This document shows positions 18,858 to 47,260 of a stretch of DNA of 64,000 nt, piece after piece. Source of the DNA: Alphaproteobacteria bacterium (GTDB lineage Bacteria; Pseudomonadota; Alphaproteobacteria; UBA828); assembly GCA_965214705.1 (NCBI GenBank), contig CBDCCI010000002.1, forward strand, positions 1,984,001-2,048,000, in the 5' to 3' direction. Position 1 is the stretch's first letter, and every line of letters starts with the position of its first letter. Position numbers and translations under genes: made by a program. The notes below the pieces were generated by a model. The model did not search any database and was not told the DNA's origin. It was given only the letters and a program-made list of their open reading frames with translations.

Positions 18858-21077
18858 ATGACGACACGAATCGCGTCCGCGGTTCGCGCACTCGCATCGG
18901 AGCTGCGGGCCGATGCCGGCTCGGCCATGCTGCCGACTGCGCTATCCACAGGCCTCATCATCGCTGTGATCGTGCTGGTCGGCGAAGCCGCCATCGCCTC
19001 CATCATCTTCTCGGGGCCACTCTCCCCGCTCGTCCCCCAGGGCACGGGTGCGATCCTGTTCGGCACGCTCGTCATGTGCTTTCTCACGGCGCTGGCCTGC
19101 ACCTACAAGGGCACGATCTCCGTCCCCCACTTCGCGCCGGCCGCGGTGCTGCTGACGATCGGCGCTGCGGTCGCCGCCGTCATGGTCTCCGCCAGCGGCG
19201 AGGCGGTGTTCGCGACGATGATCGTCATCGTCGGCCTGTCGACCGTGGCGACGGCGATCTGCTACCTGCTCATCGGGTGGTTCGGGCTCGCCCGTCTGTT
19301 CCGCTTCATGCCCTACCCCCTGGTTGGCGGGTTTCTTGCGGGGCTCGGCTGGTTCCTGGTCAAGAGCAGCGTCGCGGTGGCGAGCGGAATCACGATGACG
19401 TGGGAGACGCTGCCCACGCTGGCCGAGATCGACACGATCCAGAAGTGGGCGCCAGCCGTGTTCTATGGTGTCCTGCTGCTCGTCGTCGCCAAGGTCCGGC
19501 CCCACTATCTCATCCTGCCCGGATCGGCAGTGGTCGCGATCGGGGTCTGCCACGCAACGCTCTTCGCACTCGACATACCGCTCGCGGAAGCCACTGCGGC
19601 GGGCATCCTGTTCGTGGGTATCCCGGCGGGGTCCGCCTGGCCTCCCATCGGGTTGAGCGATCTCGCTCTTGTGGACTGGGGTGTGGTGACGTCTCAGCTT
19701 CCCGGAATCCTGGCCGTGATGCTGGTCGCCCTCATCAGCCTTGTGTTCTGTGCGGGCGGGCTGGAGCTGATCAGCGGCGTCCAGATCGACCTGAACAGGG
19801 AGTTCCGTGCGGAAGGCGTCTCCAGCCTGTTGGCCGGACTCGGCGGCAGCGCCCCCGGCTGCAACTCGATCCCCAACTCCGCGGTCAGCCATGCAACCGG
19901 GGCCGAGACCCGGCTGACGGGGGTCACGGTCGCGCTCATCGTCGGCCTGATTCTGTTCGTCGGCGGCGACGTCCTGGCGCTGATTCCGACGCCGGTGCTC
20001 GGCGGTCTCGTGCTGTTCGTCGGACTCAACCTGCCCTACGAAGTGCTGGTCTCCAACCGCAAGACGCTGCCGTGGCTGGATTACGGCATCGTCCTCGCGG
20101 TCTCGCTCGTCATCGTCTTCGTCGGGTTCCTGGAAGGCGTGGCCGTGGGGCTCGCGGCGGCCGTGGTCTTCTTCGTCGTGCGCTTCAGCAAGGTGAGCGT
20201 CGTCGATGAAGCCTTCACGCTGCGCCAGCAGCGCAGCAAAAGGACCCGTTCCGCCACCCACAACGCCATTCTCCGCCATTGGGCCGAGCGGGTGCAGGTC
20301 TATCGGCTGCGCGGCTACGTCATTTTCGGCAATGCCGCCGCCATCGGCGACCGTCTCAATCGAGTGCTCAAGGCCGAACCGCCTCCCCTGTGCGTGTTGC
20401 TGGACTTCGCACAGGTCTCGGGCTTCGACAGCTCGGCCGCAAATGTCATGAGCCGCGCGGTCCGGGCTGCGCACGCGCGGGGCACGCGAATCGTGCTCAG
20501 CGCCGCGGCCGAGCACGTCCGCTCCATCCTGCATCGCGGCCTGCCTGCCCCCTTGCGGGACTCGCTGATCCTGGTCGAGGATCTCGACCGTGCGTTGGAA
20601 CGCTGCGAGGACCTCGTCATCGCCGAGTGGGATCGCCAGCACGGCGGCTCGGACGAGGCGCGGGAGGAGCTGTTCGGATTGTCCTTCGATCACGCCATGC
20701 GCGACCTCGACAGGCAGTCCCGCTTCGAGGCGCTCGTGCACCGGCTTGCGCCCTGGCTGGAGACCCGCAGCTTTGAGGCCGGCGAGATCATGGTGGCACG
20801 TGACGAGGTGATGGACGGCATGCTCCTCGTGACCGAGGGCCGGGCCGTCGCCCGCGAGGACGACACCGGCTCAAGGGTGGAAGAGTACGGCCCTGGCGAT
20901 GCGCTTGTCGCCGGCGCTGCGCTCGCACCGCATGTGTCGCGGACGCCGGTGATCGCAGAGGTGCCGTGCCGCGCCCTCCTGATGACACCCGCCGCGCGCG
21001 AGGCCCTGGAGCGCGACGACCTGGCGCTTGTCGTCGAGCTCGACCGTTACCTCATCGAGACGATGTCGGCGCAGTAG
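18858..21077 (+). CDS. SulP-family anion transporter with STAS and cyclic-nucleotide-binding domains
   Basis: TM domain with FMPYPLVGGFLAG, STAS segment LLDFAQVSGFDSSA, and a C-terminal cNMP-like domain. Confidence 0.88.
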   Translation: MTTRIASAVRALASELRADAGSAMLPTALSTGLIIAVIVLVGEAAIASIIFSGPLSPLVPQGTGAILFGTLVMCFLTALACTYKGTISVPHFAPAAVLLTIGAAVAAVMVSASGEAVFATMIVIVGLSTVATAICYLLIGWFGLARLFRFMPYPLVGGFLAGLGWFLVKSSVAVASGITMTWETLPTLAEIDTIQKWAPAVFYGVLLLVVAKVRPHYLILPGSAVVAIGVCHATLFALDIPLAEATAAGILFVGIPAGSAWPPIGLSDLALVDWGVVTSQLPGILAVMLVALISLVFCAGGLELISGVQIDLNREFRAEGVSSLLAGLGGSAPGCNSIPNSAVSHATGAETRLTGVTVALIVGLILFVGGDVLALIPTPVLGGLVLFVGLNLPYEVLVSNRKTLPWLDYGIVLAVSLVIVFVGFLEGVAVGLAAAVVFFVVRFSKVSVVDEAFTLRQQRSKRTRSATHNAILRHWAERVQVYRLRGYVIFGNAAAIGDRLNRVLKAEPPPLCVLLDFAQVSGFDSSAANVMSRAVRAAHARGTRIVLSAAAEHVRSILHRGLPAPLRDSLILVEDLDRALERCEDLVIAEWDRQHGGSDEAREELFGLSFDHAMRDLDRQSRFEALVHRLAPWLETRSFEAGEIMVARDEVMDGMLLVTEGRAVAREDDTGSRVEEYGPGDALVAGAALAPHVSRTPVIAEVPCRALLMTPAAREALERDDLALVVELDRYLIETMSAQ

Positions 21078-21123
21078 GCGAGGCCTTTGCGACCCCACCT
21101 CCCCCTGTCCCCCTCCCAACTTA

Positions 21124-21179
21124 TTCATTTCCCTCAATCGCCGGGCGCTCGTATTTTCATTTCCCTCAACGGCGGGCGC
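21124..21179 (+). repeat. Direct repeat pair TTCATTTCCCTCAA(N3-4)CGGGCGC
   Basis: An exact 14-mer occurs at 21124-21137 and 21156-21169, a 32-nt period. Confidence 0.8.
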
Positions 21180-21290
21180 GAACTCCGTTCGCTTGGCTCC
21201 GCGCTTCGCGCGCGGCGCATTCGCGCCGTCCGGGCTGCTTCGCAGCCCGGTCCCATCAGGGCAAACGCTTCGTCGGTTGCCGGTAGCGTG

Positions 21291-21344
21291 CCCCGGACCA
21301 TGGTGCGGTGCACAGGAAGGGGCGGCGCGGGGCAGCATCGCGGG
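21291..21344 (+). promoter_or_regulatory. Dyad motif copy 1 with a putative leaderless promoter
   Basis: CCCCGGACCATGGTGCGGTGCAC, 21/23 identical to 46434-46456; -10-like CAGCAT 6 nt before ATG 21345. Confidence 0.55.
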
Positions 21345-22133
21345 ATGAGCCACCACACCACCCGCGAGCACAGCCACGCCATGCAAAACGAACCCCCAAA
21401 GAGCACAACGGCCGGGACGTTCGGCCGCTCCTCCATCGACCGCCTGCCGGCCAAGCTTCGCGAGGCTGTCGATCAGGCCATCGCGGACGGCGCCACCATC
21501 GACGAGATCACCGCCCGCATCCGGGCCCAAGGCGAGACATGCTCGCGCTCGGCCGTCGGCCGCTACGCCAAGAACATGCGCGACCTGATCTGCCAGCAGC
21601 AGGAGACCGACCGCACCATCAAGGCGTGGATGGACGCGCTCGGAGAGCGCCCGGAGGGCCAGGCGGGGCTCATCCTGATCGAGACCCTGCGGACCATGGC
21701 GCTCGCCACCATGGCTCGTCTCAGCGCGCGGGAAGAGCCCGTGTCGACGGAGGAGCTCGCCCGCCTCGCCCTCACCCTCAAGCGCATCGAAGGCACCGAC
21801 AAGCTCCGCAAAGACCGGGAGCGGGCGGCAAAGAAGGCGGCGAACGACGCAGACAGCGCCAAGCGCCAGGGCGGGCTCTCGCCGGAGGCGGTCGCCATCA
21901 TCCGCGCGGAGGTGGAGGGCAGGCCCCCGCCACCCCCGCCTGCTCCCCGCACCGTCACGTCGGTGCCGGTGGACCCGTGGAACCCTGCCGAAGCCCGCCT
22001 ATACCCATCAATCCCACCTGATCCCGGCGAATCCCACTTGAGCCCGGATAATTGCTATGAATCCTGGACGGAAATTGCGCCGCGGGTGTTTCGCACCAGC
22101 CCCACATCGATCCTGTCCCTCGGGCCGGCGTGA
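21345..22133 (+). CDS. Orphan Mu-like phage gp27 (DUF3486, putative small terminase) with a low-complexity C-terminal extension
   Basis: Segments GRSSIDRLPAKLREAVDQAI, TIDEITARI, SRSAVGRY and GLSPEAVAIIRA match the gp27/DUF3486 pattern. An alternative start is ATG 21381. Confidence 0.75.
   Translation: MSHHTTREHSHAMQNEPPKSTTAGTFGRSSIDRLPAKLREAVDQAIADGATIDEITARIRAQGETCSRSAVGRYAKNMRDLICQQQETDRTIKAWMDALGERPEGQAGLILIETLRTMALATMARLSAREEPVSTEELARLALTLKRIEGTDKLRKDRERAAKKAANDADSAKRQGGLSPEAVAIIRAEVEGRPPPPPPAPRTVTSVPVDPWNPAEARLYPSIPPDPGESHLSPDNCYESWTEIAPRVFRTSPTSILSLGPA
21971..22062 (+). repeat. Degenerate array with about 10-bp period
   Basis: CCC at 21974, 21983, 21994, 22004, 22013, 22023, 22033 and 22043 (ATCCCACCTG ATCCCGGCGA ATCCCACTTG AGCCCGGATA), ending in TAATTGCTATGAA. 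Confidence 0.7.
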
Positions 22134-22165
22134 GGCGCGGGCGGGAGTGTGGCGGGAAAAGCCGT

Positions 22166-23794
22166 TCAGGCGTCCGGCAGCCGGTAGTCCTGGAACATCT
22201 CGCGCAGGCGCGACTTCTGAATCTTGCCCGTGGCGGTGAGCGGCAGCTCGTCGACCAACACCACGTCGTCGGGCAGCCACCACTTCGCGACCCTGGCGGC
22301 AAGGTAGGCGTTGATGGTGTCCTTGTCCGGTGCGCAGCCGTCCCGCGGCACGACCACCATGAGTGGGCGCTCCTCCCACTTGGGATGGAAGACGCCGATG
22401 ACCGCGGCCTGCTTCACGTCCGGGTGGCCGACTGCCGCGTTCTCCAGGTCGATGGAGCTGATCCACTCGCCGCCCGACTTGATCACGTCCTTGGTGCGGT
22501 CGGTGATGCGCATGAAGCCGTGCTCGTCCAGGGTGGCGACGTCGCCGGTGGGGAACCAGCCGTCGCCGTCGAGCTTGTCCCCGCCCTCGCCCTTGAAGTA
22601 GCCGCTGGCAGCCCAGTTGCCGCGCACCCACATGTCGCCAAAAGTCTTGCCGTCGCGCGGCACCGGCGCGCCGTCCGCGTCCGTGATCTGGAGTTCCAGG
22701 CCGAACTGCACGCGGCCCTGCTGGCTCAGCACGGCCTCGCGTTCGTCGCCAGAGAGTGCGTCGATCGCCGGCGTCGCGGTCGCCATGGTGCCGAGCGGCG
22801 AGGTCTCGGTCATGCCCCAGAGCTGGTGCACCGTCACCCCGTAGGGGTCGGCCAGTCGCTCGATCATGGCGCGCGGCACCGCGGAGCCGCCGATGGCGAC
22901 CCGCTCCAGGCTCTCCACCTTCTTGCCGCTCTCGTCGAGATGGTCGATCAGCATGGTGAAGACCGTGGGCACACCGAGCGCGAAGGTCACCCCCTCCCCC
23001 TCGATCAGCTCCTGCAGGCTCTGCCCGTCCATCTTGGTGCCGGGCAGCACCAGGCCCGCGCCGGAGAGGCAGCCGAGATAGGGCAGCGACCAGGCGTTGC
23101 CGTGGTACATCGGCGCGATCGGCATCAGCACGTCGTGGGCGGAGATGCCCATGGCGCTGTTCTGGCAGGCGGCCATAGCGTGCAGCAGGGTCGAGCGGTG
23201 GCTGTAGAGCACGCCCTTGGGATTGCCCGTCGTGCCCGAGGTGTAGCAGAGCGAGGACGCGGCGCGCTCGTCGAAGATCGGCCACGCATAGTCCTCGCTC
23301 TCGCCCGCGAGCAGGGTCTCGTAGCAGAGGACGTTGGGAAGCGCGGTCTCCGGCATGTGCGCCTCGTCGGTCATCACCACGACCTGCTCGACCGTCGTGA
23401 GTTGGTCCGCGATGCGCTCCACCAGCTCGACGAAGGTGAGGTCCACGAACAGCACCCGGTCCTCGGCGTGGTTGATGATGTAGACGATCTGCTCGGTGAA
23501 GAGCCTGGGGTTCACCGTGTGCAGCACGGCGCCCATGCCGGAGACGCCGTAGAAAAGCTCCTGATGGCGATAGCCGTTCCAGGCGAGCGTGCCGACCCGG
23601 TCGCCGTGGCCGATGCCGAGCCGCGCTATGAGGTTGGCGACGCGCCGCGCGCGCCGCTCGCACTCGGCATAGCCGTAGCGGTGGATCGGGCCTTCGACGG
23701 TGCGCGAGACCACCTGGCGATCGCCGTGATACTCCGCCGCATAACGGATCAGCGACGAGATCATCAGCGGGATCTCCTGCATCAGGCCGTGCAT
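22166..23794 (-). CDS. Fatty-acyl-CoA ligase, 3-(methylthio)propionyl-CoA ligase (DmdB)-like
   Basis: Motifs [32 protein letters not shown] and HPKWEERP. Confidence 0.88.
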
Positions 23795-45185: not shown

Positions 45186-46387
45186 GGAAGGTCTGATCAA
45201 GTCGGGTGTACCATGATTTTCGTAGGAGTCGCAGATTGGATGATCGGGTCATGGCACAGGCGAGCTTTTCGGAACTGGAGCACGACTTGAAGAAGCGCCG
45301 GACGCGGCGCGAGCTGTTCCTGGAGAAGATGGACAAGCTGGTTCCCTGGGAGCGGCTGGAACGGCGGATCGAGCCGTTCTATCCGAAGGCGGGGCGCGGT
45401 CGGCGCCCGTACCCGCTTGCGGTGATGCTGCGCGTTCACTGCGTGCAGCTGTTCTACAACCTGAGCGATCCGGGGATGGAGGACCTGCTCTACGAGGTGG
45501 AGTCGGTGCGGCGTTTCGTGGGGCTGCGGCTGGCGGAGGCGTTGCCTGACGAGACCACCATCCTGAACTTCCGGCATCTTCTGGAGAAGCACGGCCTGGG
45601 CGAGGGTCTGTTCGAGGAGATCAATGCGCACCTGGCGTCGCGCGGCCATTGGCTGCGCACGGGGACGATCGTTGACGCGAGCATCATCGAGGCGCCGTCG
45701 TCGACGAAGAACCGGCGCCGCGCACGGGACCCTGAGATGCGTCAGACGAGGAAGGGCAAGCAGTGGTATTTCGGGATGAAGGCGCACATCGGGGTGGACG
45801 CCGGGTCGGGTCTGGCACACAGCGTGGTGACGACGGCGGCCAACGCAAGCGACGTGACGCAGGCGGGAGCGCTGCTGCATGGCGCTGAGACGACGGCGTG
45901 GGGCGACGCGGGCTACCAGGGGGTGGAGAAGCGTCCCGAGCACCGGGATGGCGGTGTCGAGTGGCGTGTGGCGATGAAGCCGGGGCGGCGCCGGCTGCTG
46001 GCCGGGGGTGGCGCCGAAGCGGCGGCCGAGACGCGCAAGGCGTCGGTGCGGGCGAAGGTGGAGCATCCGTTCCTGTACGTGAAGCGGCACTTCGGCTACG
46101 CCAAGGTGCGCTACCGGGGCGTGGCGAAGAACAGGCAGCGCATCGCGTTGCTGCTGGGGTTCTCGAACCTGCTGATCGCCGGCCGCTACGCGACGCAATG
46201 ACAGGGGAGCAGTCCGCCCGCCGCCGGCGGGACGACGGGGAATGCGGCGGATCGACGCGGATATCGCCCGTTCGCTCCGTATCCCGCGACAAAAGCAGCC
46301 CCCGGCCTGCCGGCAATATCGTCGAGCTTCAAATCCAAGCCCCCTCTCCCCCTCGAAGCCGCCAAGATGGGGTTGTTCAGACTTTCC
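45186..46387 (+). mobile_element. IS5-family element, copy 2 (1202 bp)
   Basis: Same IRs as copy 1; CTAA duplication at 45182-45185 and 46388-46391. One difference from copy 1 was spotted (G38514 vs A45210). Confidence 0.95.
45251..46201 (+). CDS. IS5-family DDE transposase
   Basis: Protein identical to that of 38555-39505. Confidence 0.95.
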   Translation: MAQASFSELEHDLKKRRTRRELFLEKMDKLVPWERLERRIEPFYPKAGRGRRPYPLAVMLRVHCVQLFYNLSDPGMEDLLYEVESVRRFVGLRLAEALPDETTILNFRHLLEKHGLGEGLFEEINAHLASRGHWLRTGTIVDASIIEAPSSTKNRRRARDPEMRQTRKGKQWYFGMKAHIGVDAGSGLAHSVVTTAANASDVTQAGALLHGAETTAWGDAGYQGVEKRPEHRDGGVEWRVAMKPGRRRLLAGGGAEAAAETRKASVRAKVEHPFLYVKRHFGYAKVRYRGVAKNRQRIALLLGFSNLLIAGRYATQ

Positions 46388-46433
46388 CTAAAGCGCGCCT
46401 CCTCGCGCCACCGCCGACCCGACCGATTTAACG

Positions 46434-46486
46434 CCCCGCACCATCGTGCGGTGCACGGCACGCGGCGGCTGCGTCAAGATCGCGCC
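46434..46486 (+). promoter_or_regulatory. Dyad motif copy 2 with a putative leaderless promoter
   Basis: CCCCGCACCATCGTGCGGTGCAC contains the perfect dyad CCGCAC-N4-GTGCGG; -10-like CAAGAT 6 nt before ATG 46487. Confidence 0.55.
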
Positions 46487-46633
46487 ATGCAGGGCGAGAG
46501 CAAACAAGTCGCAGCAGGCACGATGAGCTGGGGCGCGAGACTCATCTTCACGCGCACGACCTTCAGGCGTGCGGCACCGTCGCCACCGCTATCGGCGTCG
46601 GCCGCGGCTCTGGATCGAGAGACGCCGTCTTGA
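46487..46633 (+). CDS. Putative 48-aa ORF or remnant following dyad copy 2
   Basis: MQGESKQVAAGTMSWGARLIFTRTTFRRAAPSPPLSASAAALDRETPS; supported only by its position, which matches that of the gp27-like gene. Confidence 0.3.
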   Translation: MQGESKQVAAGTMSWGARLIFTRTTFRRAAPSPPLSASAAALDRETPS

Positions 46634-46740
46634 GCCACTGTGAGCCACTTTGGGCCGGAATGAGCCGCTTCGAGAGAGGCCGCCCTGGACCACCTTGGGC
46701 CACTTTGAGCCACTTTGGGCCGGCGTAGGCCGGAATAGGC
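46631..46740 (+). repeat. 10-bp tandem array (TGRGCCRSNN), last unit split by IS66
   Basis: TGAGCCACTG TGAGCCACTT TGGGCCGGAA TGAGCCGCTT, a 5-nt spacer, then GAGGCCGCCC TGGACCACCT TGGGCCACTT TGAGCCACTT TGGGCCGGCG TAGGCCGGAA TAGGC|CGCAA. Confidence 0.85.
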
Positions 46741-46819
46741 GTAAGCGCTGCGAGCGCCCCACCTTACGGCTTTCTCTGTGATGAGGTTCGATGATCCTCT
46801 GGCTGTGGAGGATCATGCG

Positions 46820-47260
46820 ATGGATGGTTTCGATATTCTGCGTGGGTCGGTTCCGCGACAAGCGAAGGAAGAGGTTGGCGACGAGGACGAGGCAAGCAAG
46901 GCCTCGGAGGGTTCGCAGGACGGCGCGCGTCAGCGAGAGTGGTCGGACGAAGAGAAGGCGTGGATCGTCCAAGAGAGTTTTGAGCGGGGGACGACCGTAG
47001 AGGAGGTGGCCGAGCGCCACGGGGTACCCCCTCGTCGGCTTTCGTACTGGCGCAAGCTGGCTCGCAAGGGCGAGCTCGTGGTTCCCCCGGCGGCGCCGAG
47101 CGAGGGACCGTTTGCCACCGTTGAGGTGGAGTCTGCCCCCGCACCTGCCCATGTGGGCTCGGTCTCGATCGAGGCACGCGGCGTGACGGTACGCCTCGAC
47201 GGCGACGTGAGCACGGTGCGCATCACGTCGATCGCCTCGGCGTTGCGAGCGCTTCGATGA
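46820..47260 (+). CDS. tnpA: IS66 accessory protein TnpA (HTH)
   Basis: REWSDEEKAWIVQES...VAERHGV...LSYWRK. Confidence 0.85.
   Translation: MDGFDILRGSVPRQAKEEVGDEDEASKASEGSQDGARQREWSDEEKAWIVQESFERGTTVEEVAERHGVPPRRLSYWRKLARKGELVVPPAAPSEGPFATVEVESAPAPAHVGSVSIEARGVTVRLDGDVSTVRITSIASALRALR

Follow-up and report, generated by a model that had tools for sequence, protein, structure and literature searches.

The gene at positions 21345-22133 of the 64-kb stretch of DNA analysed here (the window) is a small terminase-like (TerS-like) gene of the phage Mu gp27 family. It is one of nine cassettes in the genome with the same order: an upstream motif, a TerS-like ORF, and an array of repeats spaced by 10-11 nt. 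At 25 further sites, motif and array are kept and the ORF is lost. The best explanation, to which we give a probability of about one half, is that the cassettes form a diversified family of TerS genes with their cognate sites, serving a domesticated, GTA-like packaging system derived from a Mu-like phage. The features of the window are listed below.

18858-21077, plus strand: SulP/STAS/cNMP-binding gene, upstream neighbour of the TerS-like ORF
21119-21290, plus strand: dispersed REP-like repeat, with TTCATTTCCCTCAA twice as a direct repeat (21124, 21156), then GC-rich hairpins
21291-21347, plus strand: upstream motif, CCCCGG-ACCATGGTGCGGTGCAC, with a dyad core (21297-21310), a -10-like word CAGCAT (21333-21338) and the ATG (21345)
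21345-22133, plus strand: TerS-like ORF, 262 aa including the read-through tail (ORF translation, PF11985, PHROG 426)
21435-21920, plus strand: Gp27/TerS core, aa 31-192, helix-turn-helix at the N terminus, then long helices (PF11985, AF2)
21867-21923, plus strand: conserved C-terminal core helix, aa 175-193, GGLSPEAVAIIRAEVEG, predicted to contact the genome's own large terminase
21921-21973, plus strand: Pro-rich linker and strongly conserved block ..CCCCGCACCGTCACGTCGGTGCCGGTG.. (PRTVTSVPV) (copy comparison)
21974-22050, plus strand: class I phased repeat array, 8 CCC at 9-11 nt spacing (periodicity counts, copy comparison)
22051-22141, plus strand: A/T-rich end (GATAATTGCTATGAATCC) and 'type A' tail (..YESWTEIAPRVFRTSPTSILSLGPA, stop 22131-22133) (copy comparison)
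22166-23794, minus strand: AMP-binding (acyl-CoA) ligase gene, downstream neighbour of the TerS-like ORF
45206-46201: IS5-like DDE_Tnp_1 transposase, 23 kb from the TerS-like ORF
46393-46742, plus strand: second family member, ORF-less, class II, with its motif at about 46430-46490
46778-47260: IS3 OrfA-like HTH_Tnp_1 gene, 23 kb from the TerS-like ORF

A Mu gp27-type gene with a read-through tail

A profile search with the ORF product matched PF11985 (Phage_Mu_Gp27) with an E-value of 1.6e-26 (94.2 bits, cut-off 28), over nearly the whole family (ORF residues 31-192 against profile positions 1-171 of 173). PHROG 426, 'terminase small subunit', was matched at 4.6e-33 over profile positions 5-181 of 184. 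The original prediction of an intact gp27/DUF3486-like ORF, open on the plus strand between sulP and an acyl-CoA ligase gene, is thereby borne out, flanks included. Among isolated phages, the nearest homologues, at no more than 37% identity, are the TerS/DUF3486 genes of Mu-like phages. An IMG/VR scan with the protein returned no relative, NCBIfam profiles gave sub-threshold noise only, the PDB sequence search gave a chance match only (E 0.63), and an Rfam scan of 20900-22400, at E up to 1, found no match. Two public RNA-library runs contain contigs covering 21540-22143; as such contigs may include DNA, they attest the presence of the sequence only, and speak neither for expression nor for a start site of the TerS-like gene.

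In the AF2 monomer model, which shows only a helix-turn-helix plus long helices (residues 36-47, 52-61, 68-100, 107-128, 135-174 and 180-190), pLDDT is 72-96 across residues 31-170. Foldseek of this model against the PDB gave nothing significant (best E 0.26), a TerS chain coming first at rank 44 with E 1.6. The family core stops at residue 192, at the end of ..GGLSPEAVAIIRAEVEG, and the frame stays open for 70 more residues across the array, as had been claimed.

The gene had also been described as lone, in a window with no large terminase, portal, transposase or capsid gene. No large terminase, portal or capsid gene was found in the 64 kb, but the IS5-like and IS3 OrfA-like genes are present. 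Similarly, the gene is alone locally, but the genome holds eight PF11985 matches over the cut-off, plus a weak one.

The array behaves as a DNA-level element

The eight CCC of the array start at 21974, 21983, 21994, 22004, 22013, 22023, 22033 and 22043. The predicted array of eight turns is therefore real, but its period is not exactly 10 bp: the spacing is 9-11 nt, with a mean of about 9.9, and at a strict lag of 10 the genome contains no run of 6 CCC or more. The last four units, all (A/G)(A/T/G)CCC words, show a 20-nt super-period (period 20, score 62). A chain of 8 CCC at 9-11 nt was found at two loci, the focal one and one paralogue, when both strands of the 7.9-Mb genome were searched. 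The next longest chain inside the window has 4, and among 100 mononucleotide shuffles of the window the maximum was 6, none reaching 8.

Comparison of the copies agrees with the DNA-level role that had been proposed for the array. Among copies, the (A/G)TCCC unit is read in all three frames, and variable sites per codon position (14/13/16) show no third-position excess, as against 41/27/70 in the TerS core. The number of units differs between copies, in frame, and the homology between copy types breaks at 22035-22041, inside the array. The position of the stop codon after the array also differs, and three different tail endings run into unrelated REP-like repeats. Since one subfamily has its array beyond the stop codon, and since arrays persist at the 25 ORF-less sites, we conclude that the array is a DNA-level element.

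The PRTVTSVPV block is almost unchanged across the six close copies and distant orthologues (variable sites 7/7/14 for linker and block). The type A tail is common, in the source genome, only to copies C1:2454 and C1:124 besides the focal one; 13 copies in 5 genomes keep it (variable sites 4/5/11), and it is predicted to be disordered (AF2 pLDDT 39-51).

A motif shared by the cassettes and by phage-derived genes

The upstream dyad is real as well (ACCATGGTGCGGTG, 21297-21310), and dyad and array are both conserved in other copies and other species. The source genome contains 45 oriented copies of the motif, which by our arithmetic cover about 0.4% of both strands. An ATG follows at +46 to +52 in 42 of the 45, and a CAnnAT word at +33 to +43 in 29. 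The motif stands in front of all nine Gp27 copies, and also upstream of the portal gene, a head-tail module and a DUF5675 gene; with the only TerL gene of the genome, these four have an ATG 47-48 nt downstream of the motif. Upstream of TerL, the motif was found in 8 of 12 genomes. Its count is 10-74 per genome in 17 of the 20 genomes of the genus, against 0 for the reversed control.

This placement suggests that the motif acts as a promoter, and that it may put the dispersed phage-derived loci under common control. A simple sigma-70 scan of 21000-22300 found no promoter; a terminator scan of the same region found one terminator-like site, on the minus strand inside the ORF, which was no better than in shuffles. 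A Mor/C-type late activator (PF08765) was found in none of the 21 genomes searched. Since RNAalifold on the 45 copies gave no consensus structure (energy 0.0), we discarded the idea that the motif is an RNA structure. A 35-nt inverted repeat around the ORF (21302-21336 and 21919-21953, 74% complementary), considered as a pair of termini, was likewise dropped as a chance product of G-rich sequence and Pro codons.

Just upstream of the motif lies the REP-like repeat; region 21088-21347 gave 42 further short blastn rows across the genome. The repeat lies upstream of all six close copies in the source genome, and in the positional orthologue of another genome (G006) other sequence takes its place. 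It is a separate module that abuts the cassette.

Copies, distribution and selection

Six copies are 80-92% identical over 828-1015 nt and have common ends; homology of the focal cassette stops at 22137-22141. No near-identical copies exist, the closest pair of paralogues in the genome having 92% nucleotide identity. What is left at the ORF-less sites is the motif, about 75 nt from the start of the ORF, and an array. One of them is the second family member of the window, at 46393-46742, whose array is made of GGnCCAC(C/T)TTG units and ends in GGCCGGAATAGG. It is flanked by the IS5-like and IS3-like genes, and G006 and G017 have elements 91-92% identical to it at the corresponding, syntenic positions.

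The copies are surrounded by unrelated housekeeping genes. No phage gene was found beside any of the nine, a tyrosine integrase adjoins two, and no neighbour gene recurs around the copies beyond synteny between species. The Gp27 family is present in 17 of the 20 genus genomes, with 1-20 matches each, and was absent from all 4 genomes that were searched in other genera of the same family. Sampling across the class showed it in 15 of 200 other genomes, with 1-2 copies each.

The cassette had been proposed to be a maintained, stand-alone one, and selection on the ORF agrees with this rather than with a decaying prophage edge. No internal stop is present in 43 of the 48 best genus-wide matches, and core dN/dS, 0.23-0.62, is below 1 in 18 of 18 syntenic pairs, so evolution is not neutral. 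These values are relaxed relative to what the 88-99% identity of the capsid (see below) suggests.

The array unit covaries with the TerS subfamily

At loci of subfamily 1, at least 3 (A/G)TCCC words lie downstream of the ORF in 45 of 46 locus records, and no class II word is present in 42 of these 46, which include some places fetched twice. In subfamily 2, all 8 loci (L007, L025, L084-L089) have GGnCCAC(C/T)TTG arrays ending in GGCCGGAATAGGCCGC, and these begin directly after the stop codon. Other subfamilies have GTGCCAGTTTG or (G/A)TCTCRCTT units. The sequence of the array unit thus covaries with the TerS subfamily. Taken from the array side, the motif lies at most 1300 nt upstream on the same strand in 17 of 26 arrays with at least 3 (A/G)TCCC units, and upstream of 9 of 9 class II arrays with at least 3 units.

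L178, V183, A184 and G192, in the C-terminal core helix, are nearly invariant between subfamilies. The putative recognition helix (..CSRSAVGRY..) is almost invariant too across subfamilies with differing array units, which does not obviously fit a one-to-one specificity between TerS and array.

A resident large terminase, portal and capsid

The genome has phage-derived genes at separate loci (C3:1.237-1.240 Mb, C3:2.806-2.819 Mb and C3:2.897 Mb). Its only TerL match is at C3:1238438-1238899, 767 kb from the focal cassette, its only portal match at C3:1237022 and its only capsid match at C3:2816655. Mu F, Terminase_6N, TerL_ATPase and GpA_ATPase had no match in the source genome. The motif, the Gp27 family and TerL are shared by one set of 17 among the 20 genus genomes, where TerL and portal are mostly single copy and TerL orthologues are 68-97% identical. 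A full-length portal gene is found in 16 of the 17, G020 having a partial match with a stop, and a capsid gene, at 88-99% identity, in 16 of the 17, G018 having a weak match only. Neither motif nor Gp27 family was found in G011, G015 and G016; G011 has one weak TerL-type match (2.1e-11) and G015, outside the 17, a partial portal match. The conservation of capsid and TerL is above that of some host genes, and could reflect a recently spreading prophage rather than a domesticated set.

A complex model of TerS with the resident TerL scored 0.63, against 0.01 for the best control. Of 80 solved complexes, 58 reach this mark, as do 2 of 110 mismatched pairs; the model was built from our own alignments, and its pass may reflect likeness to solved terminase pairs. 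Runs agreed in at least 66% of contacts, with a partner pLDDT of at least 53. The modelled interface joins TerS residues 175-193 to TerL residues 24-35, 57-67, 95-106 and 121-124. It agrees with the contact between the C terminus of a GTA TerS and the ATPase domain of TerL described in the accessible part of PMC6854486.

A mobile element as a possible explanation

The dispersion of the cassettes could also be that of a mobile element. Motif and array would then be unlike termini acting in cis, the TerS-like protein a DNA-binding accessory, and the enzyme that moves the element, possibly a transposase or the nuclease of TerL, would be encoded elsewhere, with the ORF-less sites as non-autonomous derivatives. 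Indeed, the 25 ORF-less sites with both ends have the pattern of internal-deletion derivatives, and copy number varies from 1 to 20 per genome, with many copies at the contig ends of fragmented assemblies. Presence and absence are seen at two sites: G013 has a 1.1-kb REP-plus-cassette block where G000 has none, with an imperfect 8-nt junction repeat (GGGTTAGC / GGGCTAGC), and a second site is occupied in four genomes but not in G000. Paralogues in G000 (dS 0.076-0.25) are also as close as positional orthologues (dS 0.105-0.25).

However, the cassette contains neither transposase nor recombinase, its ends are unlike each other and lack inverted repeats, and an integrase lies beside just 2 of the 9 copies. 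The junction repeat in G013 is the one, weak, case resembling a target site duplication (TSD); the second empty site has none. For five G000 copies, syntenic orthologues exist in both G017 and G006, and the best pair of copies reaches 92% identity only. In other species, the positional orthologues of two ORF-less G000 sites are cassettes that still bear the ORF, so these two sites decayed in place. We regard a mobile element as an unlikely explanation of the family.

A proposed packaging model

Conserved TerL, portal and capsid genes that are split over the genome and, where examined, carry the motif, a common predicted docking helix, and array units that differ lead us to prefer a GTA-like packaging system. 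According to this model, the cassette (~0.85-1 kb) would encode a functional Mu-type TerS paralogue, and this TerS, as a ring-shaped oligomer presenting one helix-turn-helix per DNA turn, would have the array of its cassette as its cognate DNA site. Being the site of its own TerS, the array would make of the cassette a chromosomal terminase-recruitment (pac-like) site. The paralogues would dock on the single conserved TerL via the common helix and differ in array unit, and several TerS specificities, with ~35 array sites per genome, would set the start points of host-DNA packaging. Both the binding of TerS to the array and packaging of any kind are inferences. In a stricter version, which we put forward as tentative and rather improbable, packaging would be addressed: each paralogue would recognise its own array class at the ~35 sites, some of them bare, so that gene transfer would have defined starts and directions instead of random ones.

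The original prediction had left a choice between such a TerS with a pac-like site and a terminase decoy. In an anti-phage decoy, an invading Mu-like phage would turn the cassettes on through its late activator, and their TerS or arrays would poison or titrate the phage's terminase, as dominant-negative subunits or decoy pac sites. The motif is placed like a phage late promoter, ahead of the terminase, portal and head genes; the diversity of array units and TerS tails, and a rather high dN/dS, would be expected in an arms race; and TerS is predicted to dock on a Mu-type TerL. Yet a single-copy, highly conserved TerL resides in the same genomes, with portal and capsid, under the same motif, so a self-contained system fits better than defence against outsiders; the copies, moreover, sit among unrelated housekeeping genes. 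Given this resident TerL and the modelled contact, we would favour the TerS with a pac-like site, and find the decoy doubtful, a little more so than the mobile element.

Finally, a neutrally drifting prophage relic, whose periodic tail came from chance or slippage in a Pro-rich, GC-rich read-through, would agree with the long open frames of high-GC DNA, the variable post-array stop, the disordered tail and the three endings in REP-like repeats, but is very improbable, as copies share their 5' and 3' limits and mostly lack internal stops, dN/dS is below 1 in every pair, the shuffles exclude chance for the array, arrays also lie outside ORFs and covary with the protein subfamily, and no phage gene adjoins any of the nine copies.

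Comparison with known systems

The focal gene resembles the Mu gp27 type by its full-length family match, its N-terminal helix-turn-helix and helical core, and its predicted contact, through the C-terminal helix, with a Terminase_6C-type TerL. Unlike that type, it does not lie directly upstream of the large terminase gene, and it has 9 copies in the source genome versus 1-2 elsewhere in the class. The 70-residue tail, the phased 10-11 nt array that varies by paralogue and the ORF-less copies set the cassettes further apart.

In several pac phages, the recognition site lies within or beside the terS gene. An iteron-type binding array inside the gene of its binding protein is also found in lambda O/ori. 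There, as here, helix-phased direct repeats occupy a flexible, poorly conserved coding part of a DNA-binding protein gene; the units here are 10-11 nt, no replication function is indicated, and the array lies outside the ORF in one subfamily. Satellites of the SaPI/PICI type carry their own TerS and pac site; to our knowledge, they have one TerS with one site. The cassettes resemble them in having a TerS gene outside a phage, with a presumed site of its own, that could redirect the large terminase of a helper. They differ in that each is a single-ORF unit, with no genes for integrase, replication or repressor, and that each genome has dozens of such sites, which are syntenic between species. 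As with MITEs and REP/RAYT systems, ORF-bearing and shorter ORF-less units share the same ends, and a REP-like repeat abuts six close copies, but the cassette has no transposase, HUH nuclease, terminal inverted repeats or clear target duplication.

The closest parallel to the preferred packaging model is RcGTA, which is multilocus and packages host DNA, as far as described in the accessible parts of PMC5026251, PMC7947584 and PMC6854486. Here too, head and packaging genes are kept genus-wide, mostly in single copy, split over loci, with one common motif; they are Mu-type (Portal_Mu, Terminase_6C) and not of the RcGTA type. GTAs do not target specific DNA, according to the part of PMC6854486 available to us, whereas the present genome has many TerS paralogues whose DNA-binding-type N terminus is intact and which have matched arrays, a combination whose sequences suggest site-directed initiation of packaging. 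The literature on satellites, pac sites and GTA terminases, as far as its text was accessible, yielded no dispersed TerS cassettes, and we make no wider claim; for 'DUF3486', it yielded only the description of a halovirus genome.

Small terminases decide which DNA enters the phage head. If the arrays are TerS sites, the family would be a natural set of protein-DNA address pairs for the initiation of packaging. It would then give a handle on how TerS rings read DNA, an open structural question, and on whether bacteria direct which regions of their chromosome are exported. Even should the packaging model fail, the family is a clean example of the joint amplification and diversification of a phage DNA-binding gene and its cis element.

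The focal gene and its product

21345-22133, plus strand: small terminase-like (TerS-like, Gp27) ORF, open frame of 262 codons

Residues 31-192 of this frame (the core) matched Pfam PF11985 (Phage_Mu_Gp27) at 1.6e-26, over positions 1-171 of the 173 in the profile, and PHROG 426, 'terminase small subunit', at 4.6e-33, which bears out the gp27 identity put forward in the original prediction. The closest genes of isolated phages encode DUF3486/TerS proteins of Mu-like Pseudomonas, Vibrio, Chromohalobacter and Microcystis phages, with at most 37% identity. In an AlphaFold2 model built on a 21-sequence alignment, residues 31-190 form, with confidence, a helix-turn-helix and long helices, and residues 193-262 a low-confidence tail (pLDDT 39-51). 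The neighbours are genes for a SulP/STAS/cNMP-binding transporter and an AMP-binding ligase. The gene had been described as a lone gp27 without phage neighbours: no phage gene adjoins any of the nine copies in the genome, but that genome, with three contigs and the window at C3:1984001-2048000, has 8 PF11985 hits above the cut-off plus a single weaker one. Public RNA libraries gave matches within the cassette (upstream motif, TerS-like ORF and 3′ array) as contigs only.

The 3′ array

A CCC period of about 10 bp over 8 turns had been predicted. All 8 CCC are present (starts at 21974, 21983, 21994, 22004, 22013, 22023, 22033 and 22043), but successive starts are 9-11 nt apart, not a strict 10. 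Chains of 8 CCC occur at two loci only in the 7.9-Mb genome, the focal array and that of one paralogue; the second-best chain within the window has 4, and 8 was reached in none of 100 shuffles (maximum 6). Towards its end the array consists of (A/G)TCCC words, which show a 20-nt super-period. This word is translated N-P, E-S-H or I-P according to frame, all three being used; variable sites per codon position are 14/13/16 in the array versus 41/27/70 in the core (13 copies, one tail type), and all length differences of the array preserve the frame. Together these features make the array a DNA-level repeat tolerated within a disordered coding segment; a DNA-level function had been proposed.

Subfamily 1 loci carry 3-19 (A/G)TCCC words (class I arrays), and at least three were found in 45 of 46 locus records, some of them duplicated. 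Arrays of GGnCCAC(C/T)TTG units (class II), starting directly after the stop codon, are found at 8/8 loci of the divergent paralogue C1:2152 (∼50% identity) and of relatives from six further genomes. Further subfamilies have GTGCCAGTTTG or (G/A)TCTCRCTT units. At one locus, orthologous cassettes have ATCCC units in the genus members G017 and G008 (L096/L100; up to 18 units in G008) versus ATCTC throughout in G012 and G005 (L095/L097); the genome under study lacks a cassette at the corresponding place (C1:3655308-3655363). The protein of that subfamily aligns to the core only from residue ∼42, and may lack the helix-turn-helix. By this covariation with the TerS subfamily, the array is a cis element evolving together with its own gene.

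A shared upstream motif

The dyad ACCATGGTGCGGTG (at most 1 mismatch) followed by CAC has 45 oriented occurrences in the genome, in a conserved layout: CCCCGG-ACCATGGTGCGGTGCAC, ∼20 variable GC-rich bases, CAnnAT (29/45), then ATG at +46 to +52 (42/45). All nine TerS-like ORFs are preceded by it and start at its ATG. It also lies upstream of a Mu-type portal gene, a head-tail module and a DUF5675 gene, and a degenerate version precedes the sole large terminase (TerL) gene, the likely start ATG being 47 nt downstream; the motif stands before TerL, with an ATG downstream, in 8 of 12 genomes examined. Allowing up to 2 mismatches, the motif 19-mer was found in precisely those 17 genomes of the genus that have the TerS family, with 10-74 occurrences each, and was absent from the other three, the reversed control giving 0 everywhere. 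A simple scan detected no sigma-70 promoter at 21000-22300, no Mor/C activator was found in 21 genomes searched, and the 45 copies gave no support for an RNA structure. The motif is read here as a putative activator-dependent promoter, whose start would lie at the ATG or close to it.

Resident packaging genes

C3:1238360-1239895, minus strand: TerL, Terminase_6C type, the only one in the genome
C3:1236983-1239895, minus strand: TerL and portal locus, same upstream motif
C3:2806000-2819245, minus strand: head-tail module locus, same upstream motif, interrupted upstream by an IS66 transposase
C3:2896998-2897530, minus strand: DUF5675 gene, same upstream motif

Immediately after TerL come the motif and one Portal_Mu gene, and no TerS gene lies beside this locus. 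The head-tail module contains capsid E-like, tape-measure (fragment), DUF1833 and NlpC-like genes. TerL is found in the same 17 genomes as the motif and the TerS family, mostly in single copy (68-97% identity), the full-length portal gene in 16 of those 17, and the capsid gene, at the separate head-tail locus, as a single copy in 16 genus genomes (88-99% identical). This Mu-like gene set, split over distant loci, is a candidate GTA-like system.

A complex model of the focal TerS with the resident TerL scored 0.63, against 0.01 for the best control. It passed the mark, which 58 of 80 solved pairs attained and 2 of 110 mismatched ones; contacts agreed in at least 66% of runs, with a partner pLDDT of at least 53. 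The predicted interface places the conserved TerS helix GGLSPEAVAIIRAEVEG (residues 175-193), kept in all TerS subfamilies, on the N-terminal part of TerL. The modelling supports a putative TerS-TerL contact.

Motif sites without a TerS ORF

At 36 motif sites there is no TerS ORF: 13 have a class I array, 12 a class II array, and 11, which include the portal, head-tail module and DUF5675 genes, no array. The 13 class I arrays lie within about 90-200 nt downstream of the motif and end (..TAATCCCGGCGnnTCCCGCnTnAAAATT..) like the tails of those copies that lose homology within the array; the 12 class II arrays have a terminal GGCCGGAATAGGCCGC. Genome-wide, among arrays of at least 3 units, 17/26 of class I and 9/9 of class II have a motif on the same strand, no more than 1300 nt upstream. 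GC3 of the ATG-opened frames at ORF-less sites is mostly 0.43-0.79, versus 0.83-0.89 in TerS ORFs. Over their first ∼75 nt they are similar to the start of the TerS gene, and a remnant of its 3′ part persists at one site, which makes these sites internal-deletion derivatives. One lies in the window, bracketed immediately by two insertion sequence genes:

45206-46201, plus strand: IS5-like transposase (DDE_Tnp_1, DUF772)
46393-46742: ORF-less class II element, GGnCCAC(C/T)TTG array
46778-47260, plus strand: IS3 OrfA-like gene

The IS5-like unit has 6 copies in G005 (93-94%).

Paralogues, synteny and possible turnover

Six copies share 80-92% DNA identity over 828-1015 nt. Their homology starts at the dyad region or with the REP-like repeat next to it, and runs to a point within the array (22035-22041) or slightly past the stop (22137-22141). 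Three tail types follow the array, two of which merely run on into unrelated dispersed repeats. Two of the nine cassettes are adjoined by divergent, near-identical P4-type tyrosine integrases.

C1:2967536-2968825, plus strand: integrase, Arm-DNA-bind_3 and Phage_integrase
C1:2800894-2802180, plus strand: integrase, Arm-DNA-bind_3 and Phage_integrase
21119-21290: REP-like dispersed repeat, TTCATTTCCCTCAA then nested GC hairpins, 42 further short blastn matches across the genome

The TTCATTTCCCTCAA repeat borders each of the six close cassettes, always in the same orientation, and is also found downstream of the C1:124 copy; next to the cassette tails lie members of at least two further abundant REP-like families.

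Five copies each have syntenic orthologues in G017 and G006. The sulP-cassette-ligase order recurs in G005 and G010, and the cassette is immediately 3′ of sulP in G008, G009 and G012, with an IS-like insertion after the array in G009. This insertion and those beside the 46393-46742 element raise the possibility that cassette ends attract insertions. In G018 (L034), ∼1.1 kb of low-GC DNA with a long minus-strand ORF takes the cassette's place between the sulP and ligase orthologues. In G006 (L044, C54:1-1018), different DNA precedes the positional orthologue: an IS4/5-like fragment and, by eye, a tRNA-like gene on the opposite strand. The replacement stops at the dyad itself, which is therefore the limit of the sequence common to both species here. 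dS is 0.076-0.25 between paralogues within the genome versus 0.105-0.25 between positional orthologues across species. That paralogues are as close as positional orthologues suggests gene conversion among cassettes, or turnover.

A rival reading, that of a mobile element with the motif and the array as its ends, finds some support: ORF-less derivatives retain both ends, copy number varies, and two sites are filled in some genomes but empty in others, an imperfect 8-nt repeat marking the junctions at one of them. However, the cassette contains no enzyme, its ends are not inverted, no recent copies are seen, and two ORF-less sites have decayed in place.

Distribution, selection and interpretation

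The family is present in 17 of the 20 genomes of the genus (MAG records), with 1-20 matches each, and 43 of the 48 best matches genus-wide have no internal stop. A search of 4 genomes belonging to other genera in the taxonomic family gave no match; a class-wide sample gave 15 of 200 other genomes, with 1-2 copies each. In 18 syntenic pairs, core dN/dS (NG86) is 0.23-0.62, which speaks against a neutral relic, the alternative foreseen in the original prediction. The motif and array recur with the homologues.

An anti-phage decoy, akin to one of the two functions first proposed, is a rival reading. Against an ordinary relic stand the way the copies are built, their intact frames and the covariation of array and subfamily. 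In the general model of small terminases as rings of helix-turn-helix domains, each domain would read one helical turn, and the phasing of the array fits such a ring. The best-supported interpretation of these sequences is a family of cassettes, each with a TerS and, in the array, its putative cognate site, which would serve the resident Mu-like packaging genes as a domesticated set split over several loci.
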